A stretch of 63,956 nucleotides of DNA, the filler included, from Elsinoe ampelina (taxonomy: Eukaryota), in NCBI GenBank assembly GCA_010093995.1. It is 11 parts of 11 records of this genome, joined end to end, with 100 filler letters (N's around TTAATTAATTAA, not from the genome) between each part and the next. Parts side by side here need not be neighbours in the genome. Positions count along the whole stretch, not along the records: positions 14,977 to 21,476 come from ML992586.1; 10 more parts are not named here. One strand, 5' to 3'. Below are positions 3,009 through 63,956 of the stretch, one piece after another. The position numbers and the translations under genes were made by a program. Each line of letters opens with the position of its first letter. Position 1 is the stretch's first letter. A model generated the notes under the pieces. It was not told the DNA's origin and did no database searches. It saw nothing but the letters and a program-made list of their open reading frames with translations.

Positions 3009-5082
3009 ATGGCCGAACGCCTCACGATCCATCGTCGTCGGCGGAAAAACGGCGTACCTGATGGGTATCATGAACGCAACCGAATGAAACAGCCAGGGCA
3101 CTGAGCACCAGGCAACGTGCAGCAGTAGGTACATCCAGAAATCTCTCGAGTAGTTCGGATGTTTCTCGGTTGCACGGCGGATAGCAGATGCCACGGCTAC
3201 CCAACAGAGCGTGGCGTAGAGCGCGTGATACCATGCACCATCCCTGAACATGACGGAGTGGAGTCGGCGCAAGACGTTCGGACGACGAGATGGTTCCCTT
3301 TCCTTCATCGCCGGTCTTATTGAGCCTGTTGCGACAAATCGCATGACGGTCCCTCCGAGCCAACCGGGGAGCAAGATGGACTTGATGTGAGCAATGGTCC
3401 GGTCTGGTAGTGTCAGTATGTGATCGTATCACACCACGATGATCGCTTACATGGCGCCATCCAGGACTCATTGGCTGATGCTCTCATACAAAGACGATCT
3501 GTAGTCGCGAGAGATACGATCATAAGATCCATTCCGGTAGCGATGAATGCAGCGGCCGAAGCTCGTACCATTTTGGGTAGCTCATCGTCCTCGACCTGTG
3601 GCGCAAACGGCTTTCCTTGAAACAGCAGGATCAAGCTGACCCACATGTAGATGTTATTGATGATAAGTTTGATCTCTCTGAATGGCGGCAAGAACATATA
3701 CAATCTCTGTAGCAGTGTCATCTGTCGAGCTGATGCGCGGTCCAGGTACATATTCATGGCGAGACCAGATTGGATTGTGCCAACACTCTACACGCAGTCT
3801 GTCAGTCAATGCTCGTGACGCTGAACAGTCGACCTTACCCAACGTGTATACTGCTTCAAATGGCCGGTGAACGTTTCAGGCACGAGCCCATACTGGAGAG
3901 CTTCGGCCAGGTACGCAACATTCCAGCCCGCGCAGTATCATGCTGCTGAGGTGGACATCTTCGGACAGCGTCTGACCGGGAAAGCCTCCCACTTGGTGGA
4001 CCGCTTCCTTCTTTACTACGAAGCCGGATCCTGTGCACCAAGCACATCCTGCCATATCCTTGATAAGCTCTGCCCATTTGAAGGTGACGTTGAGGGTCTG
4101 CTGAAGAGGATCATTGACGGGCTGATTGTAGCAGCTCTGTAATCATGTCAGCTCAAATCGACCCTCGACGAAGAATCAAGACATACAGGAGGCGGATTGG
4201 TAAGAGCAAGGTTACTGTCAAGCAAGAAATGCGCCATGGATGATCTCAAGAATGTCTTCTCCGGAATCACATCGGCATCAAGGTTGGCAAAGAAGGGGAA
4301 GTGATCTCCAGGCAAATTGTCTGCGAAGGACATGGCGTGGTTGAGATTACTCGCTTTGTTGCGATTGTCTGGCGTTTTGATACGGGCGGTATAGCTCAGT
4401 GCCGGACCTAGGGCATCCTGCTGCAGGTTACTTATGGCACGTCGCAGCTCAGCTGAATCTCCGTCGTCGGTGACGGTGACTCTGAGTCGGTCGCTGGGGT
4501 AATCGAGATCGAGTGCAGCTCTGACGGTGTCAAGGATGATGTCAACATCCTCTCCGCAGCAAGCGATAACCAGATCAACGCCCGGAAGGTCTGCACCCAA
4601 AGCTAAGAGGCGTCTTCTCGGTCTACAGAGCAGGACTACCAGAGCGTCGACGATTGTTTTCATGCAGTCCGGAGCTATTCCCTGTCAGCCGGGCCGGTCA
4701 AGATGAACAGCCCAGACCTACCTAGGACGAGTAGCTCTACCACGGAGAAAGCGAGTCGCCACGAGTATCCGCTACGGTGCCACTGTGCGCCCATTGTGAG
4801 TACGTAGTAGTGAAGCTGAAGTGCCAGTGTCGCCATTCCAACGAATGGAAGGAGAGGCAGGAGGACAAGCTTGGCGAATCGGTTGATGGTCAACCAGTCT
4901 TTAGTATCGTTCTCAACGATCACACTCTGTCCGAGATTGTCGAGTTCTCCAGCGAACAGATCGGTTTTCTCGGGGAGCCAGCCGTCACTTGGCGATAACA
5001 AAGGAGACGCTGTGCGAGATGTGCCAGGTGTGAGGACAAGAAGCTGGCGCACAAGGCTAAGAACCCGCTTCCTACCCAGCAT
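3009..5082 (-). pseudogene. Processive glycosyltransferase family 2 (cellulose synthase-like) pseudogene, multi-exon
   Basis: DDG, KASNLN, DAD, CTGSG, SED and QYTRW (QxxRW) motifs; intron 4137-4186 and others; frameshift at ~3930; 3' end cut by the MULE. Confidence 0.85.
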
Positions 5083-8129: not shown

Positions 8130-8229
8130 NNNNNNNNNNNNNNNNNNNNNNNNNNNNNNNNNNNNNNNNNNNNTTAATTAATTAANNNNNNNNNNNNNNN
8201 NNNNNNNNNNNNNNNNNNNNNNNNNNNNN
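8130..8229. other. Artificial contig linker; also at 14877-14976, 21477-21576, 27932-28031, 33924-34023, 39706-39805, 45442-45541, 51145-51244, 56542-56641, 61854-61953
   Basis: Identical 100-bp N-run with a central six-frame stop TTAATTAATTAA; contigs sorted by length. Confidence 0.98.
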
Positions 8230-11200
8230 GCGTAGAGACGCTAGGACTAATTAAACTACTAGGGTTATTACGTGACCTAGCCCGACGTTTACCTAGTTCT
8301 CTATCTTCTCTAGTAGCTCTACCCCGGGGACTATAGAGTATATAGGTTACTAGCGGACGTGTACTCTATATTGCCCCTAACTCTCGCTATAGAGTATATA
8401 GAGTACATAGAGTACATAGTAAAAAACATATATATATAGGAGTAGTTCTTACCTTATATAAGTACTATAGTTAACCTCGTCTAGATAGCGAACACTAGTA
8501 TTACTAAGGCTAGCCTTTATAATACTATCTAATTGTACTTTATTATCTATAAGATATACCTTCTCTAACTCTTACCTTAGTACTATACTACTATAGAAGT
8601 AGAACTACCTTATTCTTAGCTTAGCTTAGACTACTAGTGTAGGCTATATTTAGACAGTTCGTAACATTTTAACTACCCTTACTATAGTATAGCACGCTAC
8701 GAGGTTAATAAGTAACTCTTGCTCTAAGTTACTATTAGCATCTTTAATCGCTAGTAAGCTAGGAAAGCTTACTATTAACGACATGTCTACTACTAGTTTA
8801 ACCTCGGGCAAACATAGAAGGTCTTTTAGTATAGAAGGACAGAGTAAGCCTAAGTTAGAAGTAGAACTCTTCTATAGGGACTACGCTTACTTAAGGCGCT
8901 TCCTTGTTTAACTTAAAGCCTTCTTTACCCTAGAGGGAGATAAGTACGCTAACGACGCAGCAAAGGTCCTCTATGCTAGGATACACCTTAAAGGCGCCGC
9001 CTTCGAGTAGTTTAAGCCTTATATAAGTAGCTACCTAGATAGATAACTAGGCCTAGATATAAAGGCTATTTTTAAGAGCTTTAGCATCTTCTAGGCAAAG
9101 ATTAAGCAAGTCTTTAACGTATCTAATAAGGAACGCGTCGCTATAATAAAGATCTAACAACTATAACAACGTAGGTCTATAGCCTAGTACTATTCCTAGT
9201 TCTAACAACTCGTAATGTATCTAGACTAGAACGATAGTACTAAACACTTAGTATTCTATTAAGGACTAAGCAACTTAGTTAAAAACTAAATAATACCCGA
9301 GCTGCCTAATAGCCTTTAGGAATTAGTAGATACTATAATTATTATCGACAATAGACTTTATAAACAACATATAGAACGTTATAGAGAATATAAGATAAAT
9401 ACTAGATATACGCGTTTCTCTCGAAACTATAGAGACCCTATAGAACTTAATACTATACGCGAAGGCTACCTCTTATAGGTACAAGGCTATAGCTATAGAG
9501 GAAAGTTCCTTAGTAGAAAAGAGAGAGAGAAGTATAGATAAGACAACTTATATTTTAAGTATAAAAGACCTAGGCATCGGGCTAGGGACTACTAACAAGA
9601 GGCGCTAGCCGATAGATTATATATAATAGTTGCTGGGCTAGTAGAGAAAAAGGCTAATACTACTATAGAAGACCTAACGACCTTTAGCGTAGGTAAGGAA
9701 ACATAGAAGAAGTCTATAATAACTCGAGAGGTAGTAGAATCCTCTCCGGATGTTATACTTAATATCTCTACAACTAATAGTAAATAACAAAGCTAATATA
9801 TAATGCTATTATAGATAGTATATTACAATAACTCTTGTTATATTTACTTATTAGACAAGTAGGGATCTAGTTAGTTCCTATATAAGCTGTCTAAGTATAG
9901 GCAACTAACAAAATAGCTAGACTAGAAACTCGACCTAGAAGAGCTCCCTATAATTAGTAGTAATAGTAACTAACCTTAAAAGGTAGTTAGTAACAATTAC
10001 TAATATACGATTATCGAGATGAAGTATTAGAACGTAAGTACTATATAATAATATAGTAGCCTTACCTTTAGCTCTTATAGCGAACTATAAGGAAAGGTAT
10101 ATTATATGTCGCTCTAGAAATGTACAAATCTAAATTATAAATAGTACTATACTATCTACTTACACGATGTACTTAGAGAAGAGACTATTAGTCTTAAATA
10201 CACTATAGACTTCTTAGTAATTAAAATAGATAGTACTATCCCCTATAGCTAAGTAAGAAAATATACTTAGTGTAGCCTTACTAACTATAACTATACTAGG
10301 GGTAGTAGCGACGAAGAGAAATATAACAAAGAATATACTAAATAACTATAATATAACAACATAGATAAGGACTTATCTAATAACAACAACGACGACAACA
10401 ATGTGCTACTACTAGGCAGACGACTTAAAGTATACCTTATAGGGATATAGAGGAATTATATAATAATATACACCTACTACTAGAATAGGACACGACAAGA
10501 TAAATCTATATAACTTGTTTTTGTCTTTAATGCTAACGCCTAGCTACACCTAGAAGAAATAGTTATACTAATATAGGTATATAACACTACTTAGTGTAAC
10601 TAGTAGAGAATTATTAGACTTTATAGTCACTAAGGGACTTAGGCGCTAGAAGTTTACCTTACTATATTAAATAGCGATAAAACACAACTTGCCTAATAGA
10701 TATAGTACTAATAGTAGATACGTGTAGAAAGGGATTAGCTACTTATCTAAGGAGCTATAATAACAAAAAACTAGCTAGTTGTCACCTAATAAGGCAAGAC
10801 AATAACACTAGCTAAAGCCTTAATATAATAAAGATCTACACGTTAAACTACTTTATACTAGAAGTTAAAATATAAGAGAGTAAGGTAAGAGTAATAATAG
10901 ATTCGGGAGCTAACTATAGCTACGTCTCTATAATAGTTACTAATTAGCTTAAACCTTATTAACACTAGAAGGAGTTACCTTACCTACTTACTATAGCAGA
11001 TAGAACCCCTATAGAAAAGAACAGAAAAGTCACTTAGGAACTATAAAATGTTATAATTAAAATTAAAATATATATAGAAAAACGATTAATCGATATAGTA
11101 GATATATAGTATAATATAGTACTTAGCATAGACTAGCTTTAATAACATAATCTAGACGTAGACTAGATTAAAGAAACACTTGAATTTCCTAAGTATAATT

Positions 11201-14876: not shown

Positions 14877-14976
14877 NNNNNNNNNNNNNNNNNNNNNNNN
14901 NNNNNNNNNNNNNNNNNNNNTTAATTAATTAANNNNNNNNNNNNNNNNNNNNNNNNNNNNNNNNNNNNNNNNNNNN

Positions 14977-17900: not shown

Positions 17901-19330
17901 GAACTACCGAGACATATGAGGATCTATCTAGTCTTTTATATATCACTACTAGAGAAAGCACTATAGAATGCCGTACCTGGACCCATCGAACTAGATAAGG
18001 AAACACAGGAGCCACGGTACGAGATTAAAAGAGTTTTACGCTATAAACTCATAAAAGGAAAACGCTACTATCTTATTCACTGGAAGGGACATTAGTATAG
18101 CGAAGCAACATAGGAACTAGAGGAGCACCTTACCTCGCAAGTAATCCTAGATTACTAGATCGAGAACCTATCCTAAGCAAACCGACTAGACGGACCCGGC
18201 ACTCCTAACACCGAACGAAAACGAGGACGCCTAAGGAGGATCGCTTAGCTAACAGGAGCACCTTGATCGTTGCTAAACAGAGAACCCTAGTCGGAGTCAG
18301 GCATAAATAATCGCTGATCCCACAGTAGGACGGGATCCACCGACGACAGCATTTCCTCCTGCTCTAGGACTCGAATGCGAGTCTCCTCTAGAGAGATCGC
18401 TTCCTCCGCCTCATTCTCTAATTTCTGCATCTCTTCGCGTAGGCGAAGCTTATCGCCTACAGCTCTTTAACGAGCCTCTTTCGCCTTTTTACGAGCCTCT
18501 TTAGCTTCCTTTCTAGCAGCCTTAGCTGTAACTAATTCCTTTCGCAAACAAATGTGCTTAGACTAAAGACGCTACCATTCCGATTTTGTCACCCGAATGT
18601 TACAACCCGAGTAGTTACTTACGACACACTGGCTATAGATACCCGACCGAACATAGACCTTGTAATCTAGCCCCTTCGATTTGCAACGAGAATAGGCCTA
18701 CGGCATGTTAGTTCCGAACAGTTCGATAAACTCCGAGAGATTCTTTCGTGCGGATGTGCTAGATTTACTATGCCTTCGACGACTAGGAGGCATGTTTAGT
18801 GTATAGCGCGTAAAGACAAGGAGGGATACTTACTCGTTAGGACAACTCGATTAAAGGAGGAGAGTAATGTTACGAACCAGTAGGACAGCTAGAGCGCAGG
18901 GACGTTAGGACCAACTAAACCGCTAAGGTTATCACGTGACCTGGCCCGACGTTTACCCGGTTCTCTGTCTTCTCTGGCGGCTCTACCCTAGAGACTACAG
19001 AGCACGCAGGTTACTAGCAGACATATACTCTGTGCTGCCCCTGGCTTTCGCCACGAAGCACACAGAGCACACAGAGTACGCGATGGAGAACACATGCATA
19101 TAGGAACAGTCCTTACCTCATGTAAGTACTGTAGTTAACCTCGTCTAGATAGCGAACACTAGTATTGCCAAGGCTGGCCTTTGCAATACTATCCAATTGT
19201 ACTTCATTATCTGTAAGACATACCTTCTCCGACTCTTACCTTAGTGCTATACTGCTATAGAAGCAGAACTACCTCGTTCTTAGCTTAGCTTAGACCACTA
19301 GCGTGGGCTGTGTTTAGACGGTTCGTGACA
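14977..19330 (+). mobile_element. Second copy of gypsy family A (pol plus complete 463-bp 3' LTR 18868-19330), more lightly RIPped
   Basis: YLDDIVI ~15978; ETDASD ~16418; integrase ORF 17049-17372; LTR TGTTACGAACC...GGTTCGTGACA; aligns to contig 2 at offset 4103. Confidence 0.95.
18245..18793 (-). pseudogene. Antisense accessory ORF of gypsy family A, copy 2
   Basis: MPPSRRRH...A(Y/C)SRCKSKGLD(Y/C)KVYVRSGI(Y/C)SQCVVSNYSGCNI...KAARKEAKEARKKAKEAR...; all internal stops are TAG/TAA explicable by RIP. Confidence 0.75.
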
Positions 19331-19918
19331 AGGAGGTCCTTGCTAGAGTAGTGCTATAGACAAGTTAGCGGCAAAGAACACCCTCGATAAGGTCGACACC
19401 TACAGCGCGGAGAATAGCGGCAACGTCCTCGATAGCAAGGCGTAGGCCACGCATTTTGGCAACCTTAGCGCGCTCTAAGTCCTCCCCCTAGAGAGAGGCA
19501 ATGTTAGCACTAGCGCGAGCGTCCTACATGCCCTTAGTCTGCTTACGTTCCTTGACGAGGTTCATGGCCTCAATGTACTCGTTAGTGTAGCAGTTGCGCT
19601 TCTCGATAGATACGAGGTTAGCGGGGTCCTAGGAGACATAGTCGCGGTACTAGATGGCGCCGTAGGCGTTATTGACGCGGTCCAGCAGAATAGCGTCGTC
19701 GATGTTATAGCAAGCGACCTTCGCGTGCTTATAGCGGGCGCAAGTCTCGGTGACCCCTAGGTCGCGGTCATAGGGGGCATCTAGCGAATGTTAGTAGCGC
19801 CTCTAGAGGACTACTAGCGGGGTGCCGGAGACTTACCGATTATATCCCCGACGTAGTTGCTGTAGTGGTAGCAAGGGGTAATACGCGGTGGCAGCGCCCG
19901 AGAAGCCCTAGGAGCTAT
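19331..19918 (-). pseudogene. Intron-containing antisense Zn2Cys6-like accessory ORF of family B
   Basis: (M)APRASRALPPRITPCYH(Y/C)SNYVGDII, intron 19781-19836 (GTAAGT..TACTAAC..TAG), then DAP(Y/C)DRDLGVTETCAR(Y/C)KHAKVAC...; second intron ~19354-19403; cut by the family A insertion. Confidence 0.7.
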
Positions 19919-20729
19919 AGTGCTTGCTAAGGTGTTCGAGAAGCTATGTATAGGGAGGACTAACGTATTAGGGCGCGAGAGGTGCCTATATAGGCGCGTT
20001 CTGTTTACTACACAACACAACAAACACGGAAGGTGAATCCACACGCGTCGCCGTCTCCTAGGAGGTAGTAGTGTTATTCAAGGATTGATGTTATAAAGTG
20101 TCGATGTGCGACACTTGCTCGGGACCTCCGAGGGGGTTCTACGCAGTAAACGAACTAATCCTACACGTTTGCTAAAGCGCTAGTTGTTTCTTAAAGCAAC
20201 GAATGCTTTAGCTTGCAATGCAAAGAACAGCCATTAGAGGAGAGCCACGTTTGCCTTGATATATCAGTGTCGTCGGCAAATAAAGGCATGACGGATGTAG
20301 AGAGTAAACAAAGAAGCTAAGTTCTTCCCCTATGCAAGGAATGCTAACCTACCCTCATAGGAGAGGCCTATGACAGCGATCAGAGGCCTACGAAGGATGC
20401 GGTTCAATCGAGGGCGATTGAATACAGAGGGGGAATAATTGTAGGGGAGACTCGGTATGCGGCTCCGGCTGAGTCTGTCACGTGACGAACCCTCTCCAGC
20501 TGCCTTCCGTACGGCCTCCTGCCGCCACGAACAAAGGCAGCTATTAGTTTATCCATCTATCTAGCTTGTGGATATCGGTGGTTCTATACGTTGCTACACA
20601 CCTACCCTTATAATACGTGTAGACTTTTACTTAAGTATTATTCGTACTACTAATCGAGAGCTATCCTTACACTACTACAAGCTGATTATTATATATACTT
20701 ACTAGTATTAATATAATCTACCCCTAATA
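19331..20729 (+). mobile_element. 3' part of another LTR element (family B): PPT ~20426-20439 and LTR ~20440-20729
   Basis: AGAGGGGGAATAAT followed by TGTAGGGG...CCCCTAATA; the last ~100 bp recur at 58770-58869; no pol is visible. Confidence 0.6.
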
Positions 20730-20997
20730 GCCTACGTTACGTGACGGGACTATCCTAGAGCTATAGGACTAAGCATCCCCTTATACGTAATACTATCATT
20801 ATAAAGACATAAGGAACATAGATATTTATAAGGAGAAACTTAGTCCTATAGCTCTAGGATAGCTCTATCCCGTGACGTAGGCTCTCTATAGTATGTCTAT
20901 ATAGCCTCTGCTCTCTCGGCTATTTATATAAAGGTAGCTATTAGTTTATCCTTCTATCTAGTCTATAGACATCGTTAGTTCTATACATTGCTATACG

Positions 20998-21184
20998 TGT
21001 AAGGGCACGGCATTAGGGCGGCACTTGGTAGCGGCTAGTCCCACTTACGTGACGCACCTAGATATCCTACGCGGAGCTTGCGCCTAGGGCTTAACAGCAA
21101 TTAGTTCTACTACTAACGGACTGTTCGGTTAGATAGGCGTTCTCTATATTGCGACATACGTAGCTTTAATACAAGGCTTTAACA
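20998..21184 (+). mobile_element. Solo LTR (family C) with 5-bp target-site duplication ATACG, inside an older family-B-like LTR ending ~21268
   Basis: TGTAAGGG...TTTAACA flanked by ATACG at 20993-20997 and 21185-21189; reverse complement of 35647-35833. Confidence 0.9.
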
Positions 21185-21268
21185 ATACGCCTACTATTAC
21201 ATCTACAATACTAGTATAAGCTAATTGTTATATATACTCACTAGTAATAATATAACCTATTCCTAATA

Positions 21269-21349
21269 TAGAAGCCTATACTATAGGCTTAAATTACGTA
21301 ATAAATCTAACCTATATCCTAACTAGATCTAGTTTGTTTCTATCTCGTA
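21269..21349 (-). mobile_element. Terminal segment of a family-D-like LTR abutting 28S rDNA
   Basis: Aligns along its length to the LTR end at ~34482-34561. Confidence 0.65.
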
Positions 21350-21476: not shown

Positions 21477-21576
21477 NNNNNNNNNNNNNNNNNNNNNNNN
21501 NNNNNNNNNNNNNNNNNNNNTTAATTAATTAANNNNNNNNNNNNNNNNNNNNNNNNNNNNNNNNNNNNNNNNNNNN

Positions 21577-35646: not shown

Positions 35647-38600
35647 TATTAAAGCCTTATATTAAAGCTACGTATATCGTAATATAGAGAACGCCTATTT
35701 AACTAAATAGTCTATTAGTAGTAGAACTAATTGCTATTAAGTCCTAGGCGTAAGCGCTATATAGAATATCTAGGTGCGTTACGTAAGCGGGACTAGCTAC
35801 TACTAAGTACCGCTCTAATACTATGCTCTTATAATTGCCTCCTCCTCTAGGGGAGCTATCCTTAGCTCCTCGCTAGTACGTAAATATACAATTATAAACG
35901 AAAGTAATATAGGCCTTAAGGCATTTTCTATTATATGTTATATACGAACTATATACTACTTAGTTGTTATAATTCCGATAGTCTAGGTTAAAAGGGAGCG
36001 TTTATCTAGTCGCTATAGTATTAAAGCTAATCGGTAGTAATAATATTACTTTTCCCTAAAATTCCTAGTAGTGCTATAAGAGATATGCGCTCTACGCCGG
36101 TAGCTATAATAAAGATATAGTATACTAGAGATTAGAATATATAACCTTACTATTACTCCTTACTTTCTCTCTTCTATACTCTAAAATATATTTTTATTTT
36201 CTCTAACTTCTACTTTATTATAGCACTTTATACTTAATACGTATTATCTTTATAATGTCTAGACCTATAAGTGACATACGTAACGCTAGCTCTTATTAGC
36301 CTCCTATAACTCTCTTAGGTACGTCTTATACGACCTCTACTAGCGTAGGTCTAGCGCTAGCTTCTCTCTACTATAGGTATACCGCTAGCGTTAATAAGGG
36401 TAAGAGTAGTCTATTCTTATATAATTCGTAACTAACATATAGTAGGATTTAAGTATATTAGTAGAAATTTTAGTACTCTTACTAAGAAGAAGTATACCTA
36501 CTATATTAAAGAGTACTATACCTATAAGCTACTTCTACCTTACTTATATAGTAAGTATATAGCTACGCGAAACGTATTTAACTTGCTAGTAGAGATTAAT
36601 AATAATAATAATAGCGCGCCTATAGACTACGTAACCTACACCTAGACTCTCGAAGACTTTAAAGGTCTATTAAAGGTATACTACACTAACAAGTATAAGG
36701 TTACTAGCGAGGTGTCTACGCCTCGTAGTAGCTACGTAAGTGCTACGTATAGCGCGCTTAACTAGGAGAAGGTAGTAGAGCTTTAGAAGATTAGAAGGGC
36801 CTTAACTACCTTAGTAGCTATCGGATAGAAGGTATATAACTATATCGCTTATACATTTGTCCTATAACTAATACGCTTAGATAGTATATAACGCTAGTAG
36901 GTCGACTAAGTATTTAGATAGAGTTATAGCTAGAGGAGAGTTTTTTAAGGATAGAGAAGAGGTTAAGGGGAATAATAAGAATAGAGAGTAGTAGTAGTGT
37001 TATATACGAGCTAGGTACGTATCTTTAGCGCTATACCTATAAGGCCTTATATATAATATAAGAGTTTATAGCGTTTAGAATGATACCTATACAGCTAGCG
37101 TAAGTGTAGCGCTTTATTAAAATATATTGCCCTAGATAAGGAGTCTATCCTTTAACTAATTCCTATACTTATATAATCTAACTACTTATATACTCTATAA
37201 TCTACGCCTTTAGCGACTCTTCTTAGGCACCTATAGTTGTAACTTATATACGGTAATTAGCTCTCTCGTATTTATATAATTCTCTTCTAGTTCCTAGCTA
37301 TTAAACTTAGTAGGCTAGTTCTTCTACTTTACTAAGTAAAAAACCTTGCCCTTTATAGTTCTACTACCTAGGATTTTCTCTACTGTTTACTTATTTACTT
37401 TATCTACGAGAGGTATACTTTCTTCTAGCTCCTTACTAGTTCTACCTATCTATAGTTTAAGAAGAGATATATAAAAGACATTATAGATGTAATACTAACT
37501 CGGTAAGGCTAGGTAATACACCTATAATCTAATTATGTTAAGTATATAAAATAGGCTAAGAAATTGTAGTTCTATTTTCTTCTTTAGTATAGGTAGCTAT
37601 AAGTTCTTAGCTAAGAGTAGTACTAAGTTACCTATGCTATATACCTTTAGCATATACTTCCTATTATAATACTTAGCCTAGTAGGTAGAAGCCTCTTTCT
37701 ATTACTCTACTAGCTTTACGTCTATATCTCGTAAGTGTTACGCTAACTCTAATACTACTAGTACTCTTTCCCCTAAAGTCTCGTCCTAAGACTTAATAGC
37801 TATTACCTCTAACTTAGAGTAGTAGCTATATATTATTTAGAAGAGGCTTATACGTAGCGTAGTATAGATGCTATTATTGCTCGCGAACTCCGCTTATAAT
37901 AGACACTTAGCCTAGTTATTTTATAGTTCTATATAGTAGCACCTTAGATACTACTCTAATATCTAGTTTTACTATTTAGTTTAACTATCTATCTATAGGT
38001 AGAAGGCTATACTAAGCCTATATTTTATATACGTTTCGTAATAGAATTTACTCTAGAACTAGCTAGTAAAGACTAATTCTTAATTACTTACTATTTCCCT
38101 AGGAACACTATAGTAGCGAATTACGTAGTTATATAGAATCTCTATAAGCTCTATAGACGTATACTTCTTAGTAGTAGAAATATATAGTAACATCTTAGTA
38201 TATCGGTCTATAATTACTAGTACTATATTATAGTCGCTATTACCTCGCTTACTTAGTAGTAGGTTAGTAATAAAATCTATTATAATTTCTTACTATAGGC
38301 GATCTAGTATTAGTAGTATACGTAACTCGCTATAGAAGTAATAGCGGCGCGCTTTATACTTCTAGTAAACTTAGTATAACTATATATAGTTATTAATATT
38401 CTTTCTTATAGTTTACTAGAAGTATTTCTATAAAAGAAGCTTAAGCGTCTTATCCTTACTAAAATAACTAGCCTATTCGCTATTATAGTATATACGTAGT
38501 ACCTATACCTTAATAGTACTATTATTTAGAATAACTAGCGCGTTATAGTAGAATAGGAGGTTATCTTATAGATTCTATAGCGTCTTACTCTTGTCTCTAC

Positions 38601-58640: not shown

Positions 58641-58964
58641 TTATAGAGATTTTTAGAGATAAGGTATAAGCTTCTAATTAGATATAAGAATCTAGAGTCT
58701 AGCTAGCTTTAGATAGCTTATATATATAGGCTCTAATCTTACTATATACTACCTAAGAAAGATAGCTTCCTTAAGTATTATTTATACTATTAATTAAGAG
58801 CTATTCTTATACTACTATAAGTTAATTATTATATATACTTACTAGTATTAATATAATCTACCCCTAATATAATAATACTTTCTTACTCTACTTAGAAAGT
58901 AGTCTAAGAATAGCTATTATAAGAATATAGTTAGGCTCTATTAGTAATAAGAAGAGAATAGAAA

Positions 58965-61953: not shown

Positions 61954-63956
61954 ACTAGTTTACGAACTAGATTTTAGTTCGGTAGCTAAACTAGTTCTTA
62001 GTTTAGCTCGGGATAGTAATCTAGTTCGGGTGCGACCTAGATTTAGTTTATTAATAATGCGTAGATTAAGTACTTTATATAGTAACAGCGTTTAGCGTAG
62101 ATTAGAGTCTTCTTTTAAGCGTAGTATATCTCTATTTCTCCTCGTAAGTATATTAGCTTTACTATTCGTAGCACTAGGCCTATATATAATCTTAAAGTTA
62201 AACTACGTAAGGTAGAGGGCCTAGCGTACTTAGCGGCGTAATAGCTTCTAAGTCTTTATAAAGTGTATTAAGGATTAGTAGTTAGTAAGGACGTAGATAG
62301 CCTTATTAGATTAAGTACTTATAAGCTTAGGGGCCTATTCCTTAAAGGCTTAGATAATAGCTAGTAATTCCTTGTTATAGATAGCGTAGTTACGCTCGGC
62401 TTTACTTATAGACTTACTAAAAAAGGTAACGGGGCGAAGAACGTTAGACCTATCGTATTATAATAGAACTCTAGTAGTAGTAGTATTAGATACGTTAGTC
62501 TCGAGGACTATCTATTTTAAGTAGTCGAAGTAAGCAAGAACTAGTATAGTAGTAATAGTATACTTTATATAATTAAACGCTATAGTATACTTATCGTTCT
62601 AAGGTAAGGCGTCTTTCTTAAGTAGATTATTTAGTAGCTTAGCGATAGTACTAAATCCCTTAATAAAGTAGCAATAATAGCTATAGAAACTAATAAAGCT
62701 TCTTACCTAAGTAGTATTACTAGGGGCTAGCTATTTCTATACTTATATAGCTTCTACCTTCTTAGGATCTATCTTAACTCTATCTTAGCTAACAATAATA
62801 CTAAGGTACTTTACCTCTGTTAGGTAGAACTTACTCTTCTTAATATTAGCGTTTAGGCTTAATTCGTAGAGCCTCTAGAGTACTAGCTTAATATACTCGG
62901 TATACTCTTAGTAAGAGCCGTTTATATAGATAAGAATATTATCTAGGTAGATTAATATAAAGCGCTCTAGTATATTAACAAAGTTATAATTTATAAACCT
63001 CTACTAGACTATAGAGGTATTAGTAAGACTAAATAGTATTACTAGCTACTTAAAGTTGCCTATACATATAAAGAACATAGTAAGATCTTTACTATCGATA
63101 GAGTTATAGAGGTAGTAGAAGGCCTAATAGATGTTAATCTTACTAAACTATTTAGTCTTACTTACGCGCGTAAATATTTCTTTAATAAGAGATAGAGAAT
63201 AGATATCTTACTTAGTTACCTTATTAAGGCTATAGTAGTTAATATAGAGACGGAGTCCTCTACCTAGCTTGTAAATAAAGAGAATAGGTAAGGAATAGCT
63301 AGTAGAGCTTAGTATAATAAAGCCTTTATTAAGATATTCTTAGATAAATTGTTCTACTATATCGAGTTCTTCTAGCGATAGGCAGTATAAAGGCTCTATA
63401 CGTAGTAGCTTAGCGCTATCTTTAAGTATAATACAGTTATTAAAATCCGGCCGATACTAAGAAAGCGTATTAGATTATTCTTTAGAGAAGACGTCGGTAA
63501 ACTCCTATAGCTCTTCTAGAAGAACTACTATAGGATCTAGTTCTAGCTTAGAGGCTATCTAGTAGTAGTCCTCGATATTCTTTACTAAGATTATAAATAC
63601 CTTATTTTCTTAGTATTTAGCTACTAAAGTAAAGGTAGTAGCGCTAATAAATATAATAGTTAGCTCTTCTTACTTAGTGTTACTTATATAGGTAGGTACG
63701 TAGGAGAACTTATATATTAACTAAGTACTATAGGAGATTAGCTTAAACTTTCTCTAATTTAGCTTAAAGTTCGACCTAAGAGCTAGCGGCCGATATAGTC
63801 TAGTTCGTTCTAACTTAGTAGCCGAGCTAGGACCTAGTTTACGTATTAAACTAGGACCGAACTAATTCTAAACTAAAACGGCAGCTTTACTAAGCTAGAT
63901 TCCTAGATCTAAGTCGGGCTTAGATCTAGATTCTAGTCTTTTAATTAGCTATAGTA
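61954..63956 (-). mobile_element. Gypsy pol fragment (RT plus RNase H), RIPped
   Basis: De-RIPped YLDDILI ~62930-62950, ETDAS ~62490, ERNYAIYDKELLAI ~62360-62400. Confidence 0.88.

Follow-up and report, generated by a model that had tools for sequence, protein, structure and literature searches.

A RIP-Inactivated, Intron-Containing Antisense Gene in the Probable Tail of a Low-Copy LTR Retrotransposon of Elsinoe ampelina

Introduction

The stretch of Elsinoe ampelina DNA analysed here (hereafter the window, 63,956 bases as a whole) carries on the minus strand of one of its contigs the remains of a small intron-bearing gene, called gene B below. The reading that is modestly favoured is that gene B is an extra gene between pol and the 3' LTR of an LTR retrotransposon with few copies (family B), of which the tail survives here, that it is placed on the strand opposite to the element, and that it is an orphan killed by repeat-induced point mutation (RIP); its position between pol and the LTR is a probable one, since the element's own pol has been lost from the contig. 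The minus-strand stretch is a former coding sequence of about 165 codons, and this copy is a RIP-killed pseudogene, with ATA at the start and four TAG stop codons. A neighbouring retrotransposon of the Ty3/gypsy chromovirus type (family A) has an antisense gene of its own at the corresponding place.

Organization of the Window

The window consists of 11 separate contigs in descending order of length (8.1 to 2.0 kb), and the joins are N-runs around TTAATTAATTAA (linkers at 8130-8229, 14877-14976 and 21477-21576, for example). Because the contigs were merely joined, neighbourhood across the linkers is meaningless, and one match to the Rfam LSU model was stretched over a linker. Gene B is located in the contig at 14977-21476, and the features of this contig and the related ones are collected in Table 1. 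The DNA is fungal and RIP-marked, with a GC content of 22-35% in many contigs: the repeat contigs have a TpA/ApT ratio of about 2 and a (CpA+TpG)/(ApC+GpT) ratio far below 1, while the rDNA and gene-rich contigs have ratios of 0.6-0.9 and 1.0-1.2, respectively. The corresponding indices of 19331-19918 are 2.04 and 0.68.

Table 1. Features of the contig carrying gene B and of related sites in the window.
Feature	Position	Strand	Remarks
Family A antisense ORF	18793-18350 and 14690-14247	-	Only window sites matched by the family profile
Family A Ty3/gypsy chromovirus, 3' LTR	18894..19330	+	81% to 8230-8666; contig 2 likeness stops at 19330 (..GTGACA)
Family B LTR element, probable residual 3' internal region with the antisense gene	19331..20425	+	Source-genome contigs differ by RIP-type changes throughout
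Antisense gene, exon 2, including TAA stop 19367-19365	19365..19780	-	Frame, periodicity
Spliceosomal-type intron, 56 nt	19781..19836	-	GTAAGT .. CTAAC (branch site, 10 nt before the end) .. TAG; phase restored on removal
Antisense gene, exon 1 as proposed	19837..19918	-	First codon ATA; short Arg/Pro-rich N-terminus and first C-x2-Y
Possible TATA box TATATAGG	19985..19992	-	About 70 nt upstream of exon 1; weak candidate
Polypurine-like tract AGAGGGGGAATAAT	20426..20439	+	Adjoins LTR B1
Family B LTR copy B1	20440..20729	+	TGTAGGGG start, CCCCTAATA end; short terminal inverted repeat
Near-palindrome, 155-bp	20730-20883		Adjoins the end of LTR B1; complementarity of the arms 74% along their full length
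Further LTR-B fragment	20884-20996		20930-20996 resembles 20533-20599 (mid-B1); interrupted by B2
Family B LTR copy B2	20998..21268	+	Starts TGTAAGGG at 20998; nested in fragment 20884-20996
28S rRNA fragment, 126-nt, contig end	21351-21476		Rfam LSU model positions 3022-3108
Family B-like LTR copy, contig 6	35639..35833	-	Downstream of minus-strand chromovirus pol and purine tract

Coding Evidence and the Intron

An earlier note on this DNA had described a minus-strand gene here, and the frame and its periodicity bear this out. The minus-strand frame running from 19790 to 19365 is unbroken save for four in-frame codons, all of which are TAG. RIP makes TAG stops from CAG or TGG codons, and the exclusive occurrence of TAG thus fits a RIP origin. 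The three-base periodicity is strong, with a codon-position chi-square of 78.2 for exon 2, a value reached by 0.46% of 1305 segments of equal length, and the segments reaching it, besides the gene's own, all belong to the GC-rich contig 7. Codon position 1 contains 39-41% G and position 2 contains 35-37% A, whereas position 3 has 6-7% A, 46-49% C and 68% GC, that is, a bias towards codons ending in C. The plus-strand mirror frame is equally open and its product is rich in Val, Leu and Ala, which is typical of antisense reading, while the amino-acid composition of the minus-strand product is natural.

Two canonical introns had been proposed in the gene, and one of them stands. The 56-nt intron has the full set of splice signals (Table 1) and its removal joins exon 1 (19918 to 19837) in phase to exon 2, which gives 165 codons in two exons. 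The other proposed intron (19546..19488, GTAAGC..CTAAC..TAG) is unsupported and was rejected, as its 59 nt would shift the frame. The stretch contains 14 A, none of them at a third codon position, and downstream of it G is the first base in 22 of 41 codons in the unshifted frame as against 10 and 7 in the shifted frames; the TAG codons that this intron would have removed are explained by RIP. A 40-nt variant of it (19527..19488) breaks the frame and was rejected too; an alternative 3' splice site at 19757 is in frame but distant from the branch point. No ATG start was found in the gene, the proposed first codon (19918-19916) being ATA, and the possible TATA box is a weak candidate because TpA-rich motifs are common in RIP-mutated DNA. 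Among the runs X3, X4 and X6 (presumed RNA) no contig lies over the gene, and these runs have no bearing on its expression. AlphaFold2 prediction of exon 2 without an alignment gave a mean pLDDT of 44, with helices only at residues 70-129 and of low confidence.

It might be argued that there is no gene at all and that the frame, the splice-like signals and the spacing of Cys and Tyr arose by chance in RIP-mutated DNA. The missing ATG, the four stops, the lack of a homologue and of RNA support and the poor AlphaFold model (pLDDT 44) would agree with this, and splice- and TATA-like motifs come easily in TpA-rich DNA, as the false second intron illustrates. A periodicity in the top 0.46% of the window, equal to that of the host-gene contigs, would however be hard to obtain in this way, as would stops exclusively of the RIP type and a composition that is natural on the minus strand and Val/Leu-rich in the mirror frame, so that a chance origin is considered very unlikely.

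The Cys/Tyr Pattern and Domain Assignment

The spliced translation contains C-x2-Y-x11-Y-x9-C-x2-Y-x6-C, namely three Cys and three Tyr, exactly as the earlier note had it. Tyr accounts for 11 of the 165 residues, and 9 of the 16 Cys and Tyr are found within one 37-residue stretch. When either residue was allowed at each position and the first gap was relaxed to 5-12, the pattern occurred in 0.6% of 20,000 protein shuffles, a test that was picked after the pattern had been seen. Tyr produced by RIP may derive from His as well as from Cys. A Cys-rich, metal-binding module in the gene B product is plausible.

The description of the gene as Zn-cluster-like could not be maintained, and membership of the Zn2Cys6 family is not supported by the sequence. 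The spacing of that family (C-x2-C-x6-C-x5-12-C-x2-C-x6-8-C) does not occur, even if each Y is taken for a C, the first spacing being 11 and not 6, no basic residues are present between the first pair and the third motif position, and the gene has no kinship to the family A gene, which is truly Zn2Cys6-like. No Pfam match to Zn_clus (PF00172) was obtained with the translation of either exon at E up to 10, nor in six-frame translations at E up to 0.1, and neither exon matched TRP28 (PF04195) or any other relevant Pfam model. Gene B resembles the Zn(2)-Cys(6) proteins of PF00172 in having six Cys-type positions in about 37 residues, a second half of the form C-x2-C-x6-C, and a motif at the N-terminus of a small protein with helices after it; it differs from them in having x11 for x6, no basic residues, three Cys only and no HMM match.

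The Family B Element and Its Copies

A plus-strand polypurine tract and an LTR had been reported past the gene, and the purine tract does adjoin the repeat designated B1 (Table 1). The gene starts about 0.5 kb from the tract, inside the element. LTR B1 has TG..TA ends, in which CA>TA is a RIP change, and its 3' end is 89% identical to 58767-58869 and 85% to 21210-21268. Three copies in the window have the same 3' terminus (20729, 21268 and 58869), and B1 and B2 are alike mainly in the 3' 60-100 nt.

The orientation of these repeats is given by contig 6, where a minus-strand chromovirus pol (39705-37279, with RNase H, integrase, SH3 and chromodomain, about 30% identical to the family A pol) is followed after 1.4 kb by a purine tract AGAGGAGGAGG (35838-35848), four bases and then an LTR copy, of which 35831-35649 matches the 5' part of B2 (20998-21191) at 84% identity. 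Since this LTR copy lies behind a pol and a purine tract, the sense orientation of LTR-B is fixed, and since B1 is plus-oriented with a purine tract ahead of it, the minus-strand gene is antisense. The co-linearity of B1, B2 and the contig 6 copy and the positions of the purine tracts thus agree with the earlier proposal that the gene is internal to a repeated LTR element and antisense to it; the sense strand of the family B element would be the plus strand of the window, and by this indirect route the strand of the gene appears to be the opposite one. The converse arrangement, in which the gene would be the sense content of a minus-oriented element, was rejected, there being no TGG-type primer-binding site after the LTR in that orientation. 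A pol with RT, RNase H, integrase and chromodomain is seen in family A and in the contig 6 element, and the element that carries gene B has lost that part: as had been remarked, its pol is not in this contig, and the family A LTR insertion at 19330/19331, which sits 34 nt beyond the TAA stop of the gene, cuts the family B element.

Probable source-genome contigs (X1) supplied 405 pieces on 19250-21340, and the account of single copies and sites is based on a sample of 9 of 407 pieces and 40 of 127 variant places. Their differences from the window are almost all of two kinds, C>T (49 places) and G>A (59 places), and the reverse changes are few (5 places with T>C, 3 with A>G). Over the gene region (19382-20425) there are 3-6 further contigs per site, all of them more RIP-mutated at the 40 of 127 variant places listed, and the window copy appears, among these sites, to be the least mutated of several. 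At least one diverged contig among the 9 pieces listed (record 5, 20375-20495) bridges the junction of the purine tract and the LTR, and in a 6821-nt source-genome contig the likeness ends exactly at 20440, which is an independent LTR boundary. No intact copy of the gene was seen among the copies examined. The presence of several RIP-diverged copies bounded by an LTR indicates a repeat family and not a single-copy host gene. The 1.4-kb spacer between pol and LTR in contig 6 has no likeness to 19331-20425, so the gene is not common to all LTR-B-like elements; together with the confinement of strong B1/B2 likeness to the 3' end, this places the gene-bearing element in a separate subfamily.

Alternatively, B1 could be a solo LTR inside an older repeat that carries the gene and is of another kind, perhaps a duplicated segment flanking rDNA or a DNA transposon. 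The contig does consist of nested fragments next to a broken 28S rRNA gene (LTR-B pieces, the 155-bp palindrome and the family A insertion), and no family B pol was seen in it. The purine tract, however, is situated exactly at the 5' end of the LTR, as it is in the contig 6 copy, and a diverged copy crosses the tract/LTR junction; a solo LTR is thus regarded as quite unlikely.

Search for Relatives of Gene B

Relatives of gene B were looked for at both the protein and the nucleotide level. Exon 2, with X at the stops, gave 27 word-sharing candidates and no scoring one in a word-indexed search of 5.8 billion clustered proteins. A full HMMER scan of 1.84 billion representatives with the same exon gave only two matches (E about 1e-5), which were judged spurious, as they were short stretches of internally repetitive proteins. 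The spliced protein had no match by tblastn at E up to 10 in 59 metagenome loci, and blastp against the six-frame translation of the window found only the gene's own locus. Furthermore, a transition-tolerant Smith-Waterman comparison of 19331-20440 with all contigs of the window, the contig 6 spacer included, gave nothing above background. The absence of nucleotide likeness to the family A ORF, noted earlier, was thus confirmed and extends to the protein level.

RIP alone does not explain the blank search, because the similarly mutated family A ORF matched a relative at E 4.6e-23. Gene B is, as far as the searched libraries go, an orphan. The earlier note had also named a captured fragment of a host transcription factor as an alternative, and neither a host paralogue nor an annotated fungal homologue nor any other homologue was found in the protein searches.

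The Antisense Gene of Family A

The family A pol extends from 14979 to about 18140 in plus frame 3 and matches RVT_1, two RNase H models, integrase zinc and core, Tf2-1 SH3 and chromodomain; the element shares 84% identity with contig 2 over 4 kb. Its antisense ORF matches a family of 46 proteins (alignment A1) at E 1e-44, which includes hypothetical proteins of Hortaea werneckii. The family A ORF (P0005) and an intact relative (P0006) are 45% identical (E 7e-27), and three Tyr of P0005 sit on conserved Cys of P0006, so the conversion of motif Cys to Tyr by RIP is seen directly. P0006 has the spacing C-x2-C-x6-C-x8-C-x2-C-x6-C. Members of the family have a coiled coil, a conserved C-terminal motif around W and a CKVHVRSG.C..C motif. 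The family is without Pfam annotation, Zn_clus being found below threshold in 14 of the 46 proteins (best E 0.027).

A metagenome scan with this family gave 59 loci, 44 of which hold a family A-like pol. Pol is solely on the opposite strand in 40 of these 44, on both strands in two and on the same strand only in two; the 15 loci without a pol match are mostly contigs of 1-1.5 kb. Where the element lies to one side, pol starts tens to a few hundred bases from the 3' end of the gene. The antisense gene consequently looks like a conserved feature of these fungal chromoviruses and is likely to be an accessory gene.

Gene B is alike in its probable placement, its orientation and its size, both products begin with a basic stretch followed by a Cys-rich module and end in helices, and in both genes three of the six Cys-type positions are Tyr, which in family A were changed by RIP. 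The two are nevertheless without sequence kinship (hhalign probability of 0.04 for the family A profile against gene B, and -0.1 bits by hmmsearch with filters off). In addition, the family A gene has canonical spacing, no intron and a start about 65 nt from the purine tract, whereas gene B has x11 in the first half of its motif, one intron and a start about 0.5 kb from the tract.

These comparisons bear on another origin of gene B, in which all or part of a host gene was captured at the DNA level by a LARD-like non-autonomous element or was duplicated beside an LTR, all copies then being hit by RIP without the gene ever having served the element. Its third positions (68% GC, 46-49% C) resemble those of GC-rich host contigs, an intron of its own and a possible TATA box are present, it is missing from the related contig 6 element, and its copy number in the source-genome sample is low, all of which capture would account for. 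Against it, neither a homologue nor an annotated fungal counterpart came out of the searches, the purine tract and the LTR adjoin the region and at least one other copy retains that junction, and the position and orientation mirror the conserved arrangement of family A; capture is thus considered unlikely.

Proposed Origin and Function

If gene B is an extra gene of a retrotransposon, as is favoured here, it would have been transcribed from its own promoter towards pol. The 56-nt intron would have survived retrotransposition, since its splice signals would be unreadable in the sense genomic RNA. The product would have consisted of a short basic N-terminus, a Cys-rich and probably metal-binding module and an alpha-helical C-terminal part of 100 residues, and may have been dimeric. 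Other antisense accessory proteins, and the Zn2Cys6-plus-coiled-coil protein encoded by the family A gene, would by analogy point to a role in the nucleus, where the product may have bound nucleic acids and regulated the element or host silencing. The death of this copy is recorded in the ATA start, the four TAG stops, the Tyr at likely Cys or His positions and the cut by family A at 19330/19331. A wider proposal, that two unrelated chromovirus lineages each have their own antisense gene with a Cys-rich module and a helical tail and that gene B is a lineage-specific, intron-bearing, zinc-binding regulator, is put forward only tentatively and is somewhat doubtful.

Relation to Known Antisense Genes

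Antisense accessory genes of LTR retrotransposons are already known, and gene B has no detectable relatives among the sequences searched. In fungi, brtn of Boty (Botrytis, Sclerotinia), published in Virology in 2011, is described in the available portions of the literature as an LTR retrotransposon gene antisense to gag-pol and located between pol and the 3' LTR (PMC8365987, PMC7264820 and PMC4227169). Compared by description alone, brtn and gene B are alike in belonging to a fungal LTR element, in being antisense and in the position between pol and the 3' LTR, which for gene B is a probable one; among the named matches in the gene B HMMER scan and the family A search, none is labelled brtn. 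In plants, antisense ORFs of the aORF-3R type lie between pol and the 3' LTR in maize Grande (gene 23), rice RIRE2, Silene Retand (TRP28) and PvRetro13 of Phaseolus, according to the accessible parts of two articles (PMC7264820 and PMC11963269). They share with gene B its probable position, its orientation and, as far as those parts describe it, a suggested nuclear or DNA-binding regulatory role. Most copies of a given family carry them. They belong to another kingdom and another Ty3/gypsy lineage, and gene B has an unrelated protein (no TRP28) and an intron and is found as a RIP-mutated relic only.

Among animal retroviruses, HBZ of HTLV-1 is a spliced antisense gene that encodes a bZIP protein and has its first exon in the LTR. 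Like gene B it is antisense, contains an intron and is located in the 3' part of a retroelement, and HBZ is regulatory; there is no homology between the two. HTLV antisense proteins are also mentioned in the available portion of PMC11963269.

The known cases thus comprise a few plant families and one fungal gene, brtn, none with an established function in the portions of the literature available. In a narrow literature search, no report was encountered of fungal LTR elements with an antisense gene that has an intron or is of the Zn-cluster type. From a second, unrelated fungal example that retains a spliceosomal intron it would follow that antisense genes of this kind are transcription units in their own right rather than ORFs that arose by chance, and that fungi acquired them more than once; if the proposal of two lineages is true, antisense regulators would have been recruited repeatedly and independently by fungal LTR retrotransposons. 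The practical value of the gene B copy is limited, as it is RIP-killed, truncated and without known relatives. A better handle is the family A gene, which represents an unannotated Zn2Cys6-like family whose tail-to-tail arrangement with pol is conserved across dozens of fungal contigs from the environment.

Other Features of the Window

The 28S rRNA fragment at the end of the contig matches the start of contig 8 (45542-45667) at 98.4% identity, and both differences are RIP-type transitions. The join between the repeat nest and the fragment reads GACAGG^TTAGTTTTACCC and lies about 47 nt before the sarcin-ricin loop sequence; the fragment may be a broken rDNA unit at the edge of the array, or the repeats may have been inserted into a 28S gene. 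This 28S end suggested a chance link of gene B to the His-Cys-box homing endonucleases of rDNA introns, which was rejected: 1.4 kb separates the gene from the rRNA junction, and LTR copies lie in this interval. The 155-bp near-palindrome has the appearance of a MITE-like or hairpin-forming insertion. In contig 8, a group I intron (49210-49588, minus strand; Rfam RF00028, 60.8 bits) is present inside the 18S rRNA gene, whose SSU match is in four pieces.

A 1078-nt contig of run X6 overlaps the final 80 nt of the family A LTR (19252-19331) and extends for a further 255 nt into unrelated GC-rich sequence; it may be read-out from a copy of LTR A elsewhere in the genome. The segment 33117-33665 has strong three-base periodicity (chi-square 63-74) in a contig of 24% GC. 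It could represent former coding DNA that RIP has heavily mutated, or a repeat whose period is a multiple of three. Moreover, the last contig holds another Ty3/gypsy pol fragment (62137-63390, minus strand), which is 33% identical to the family A pol.
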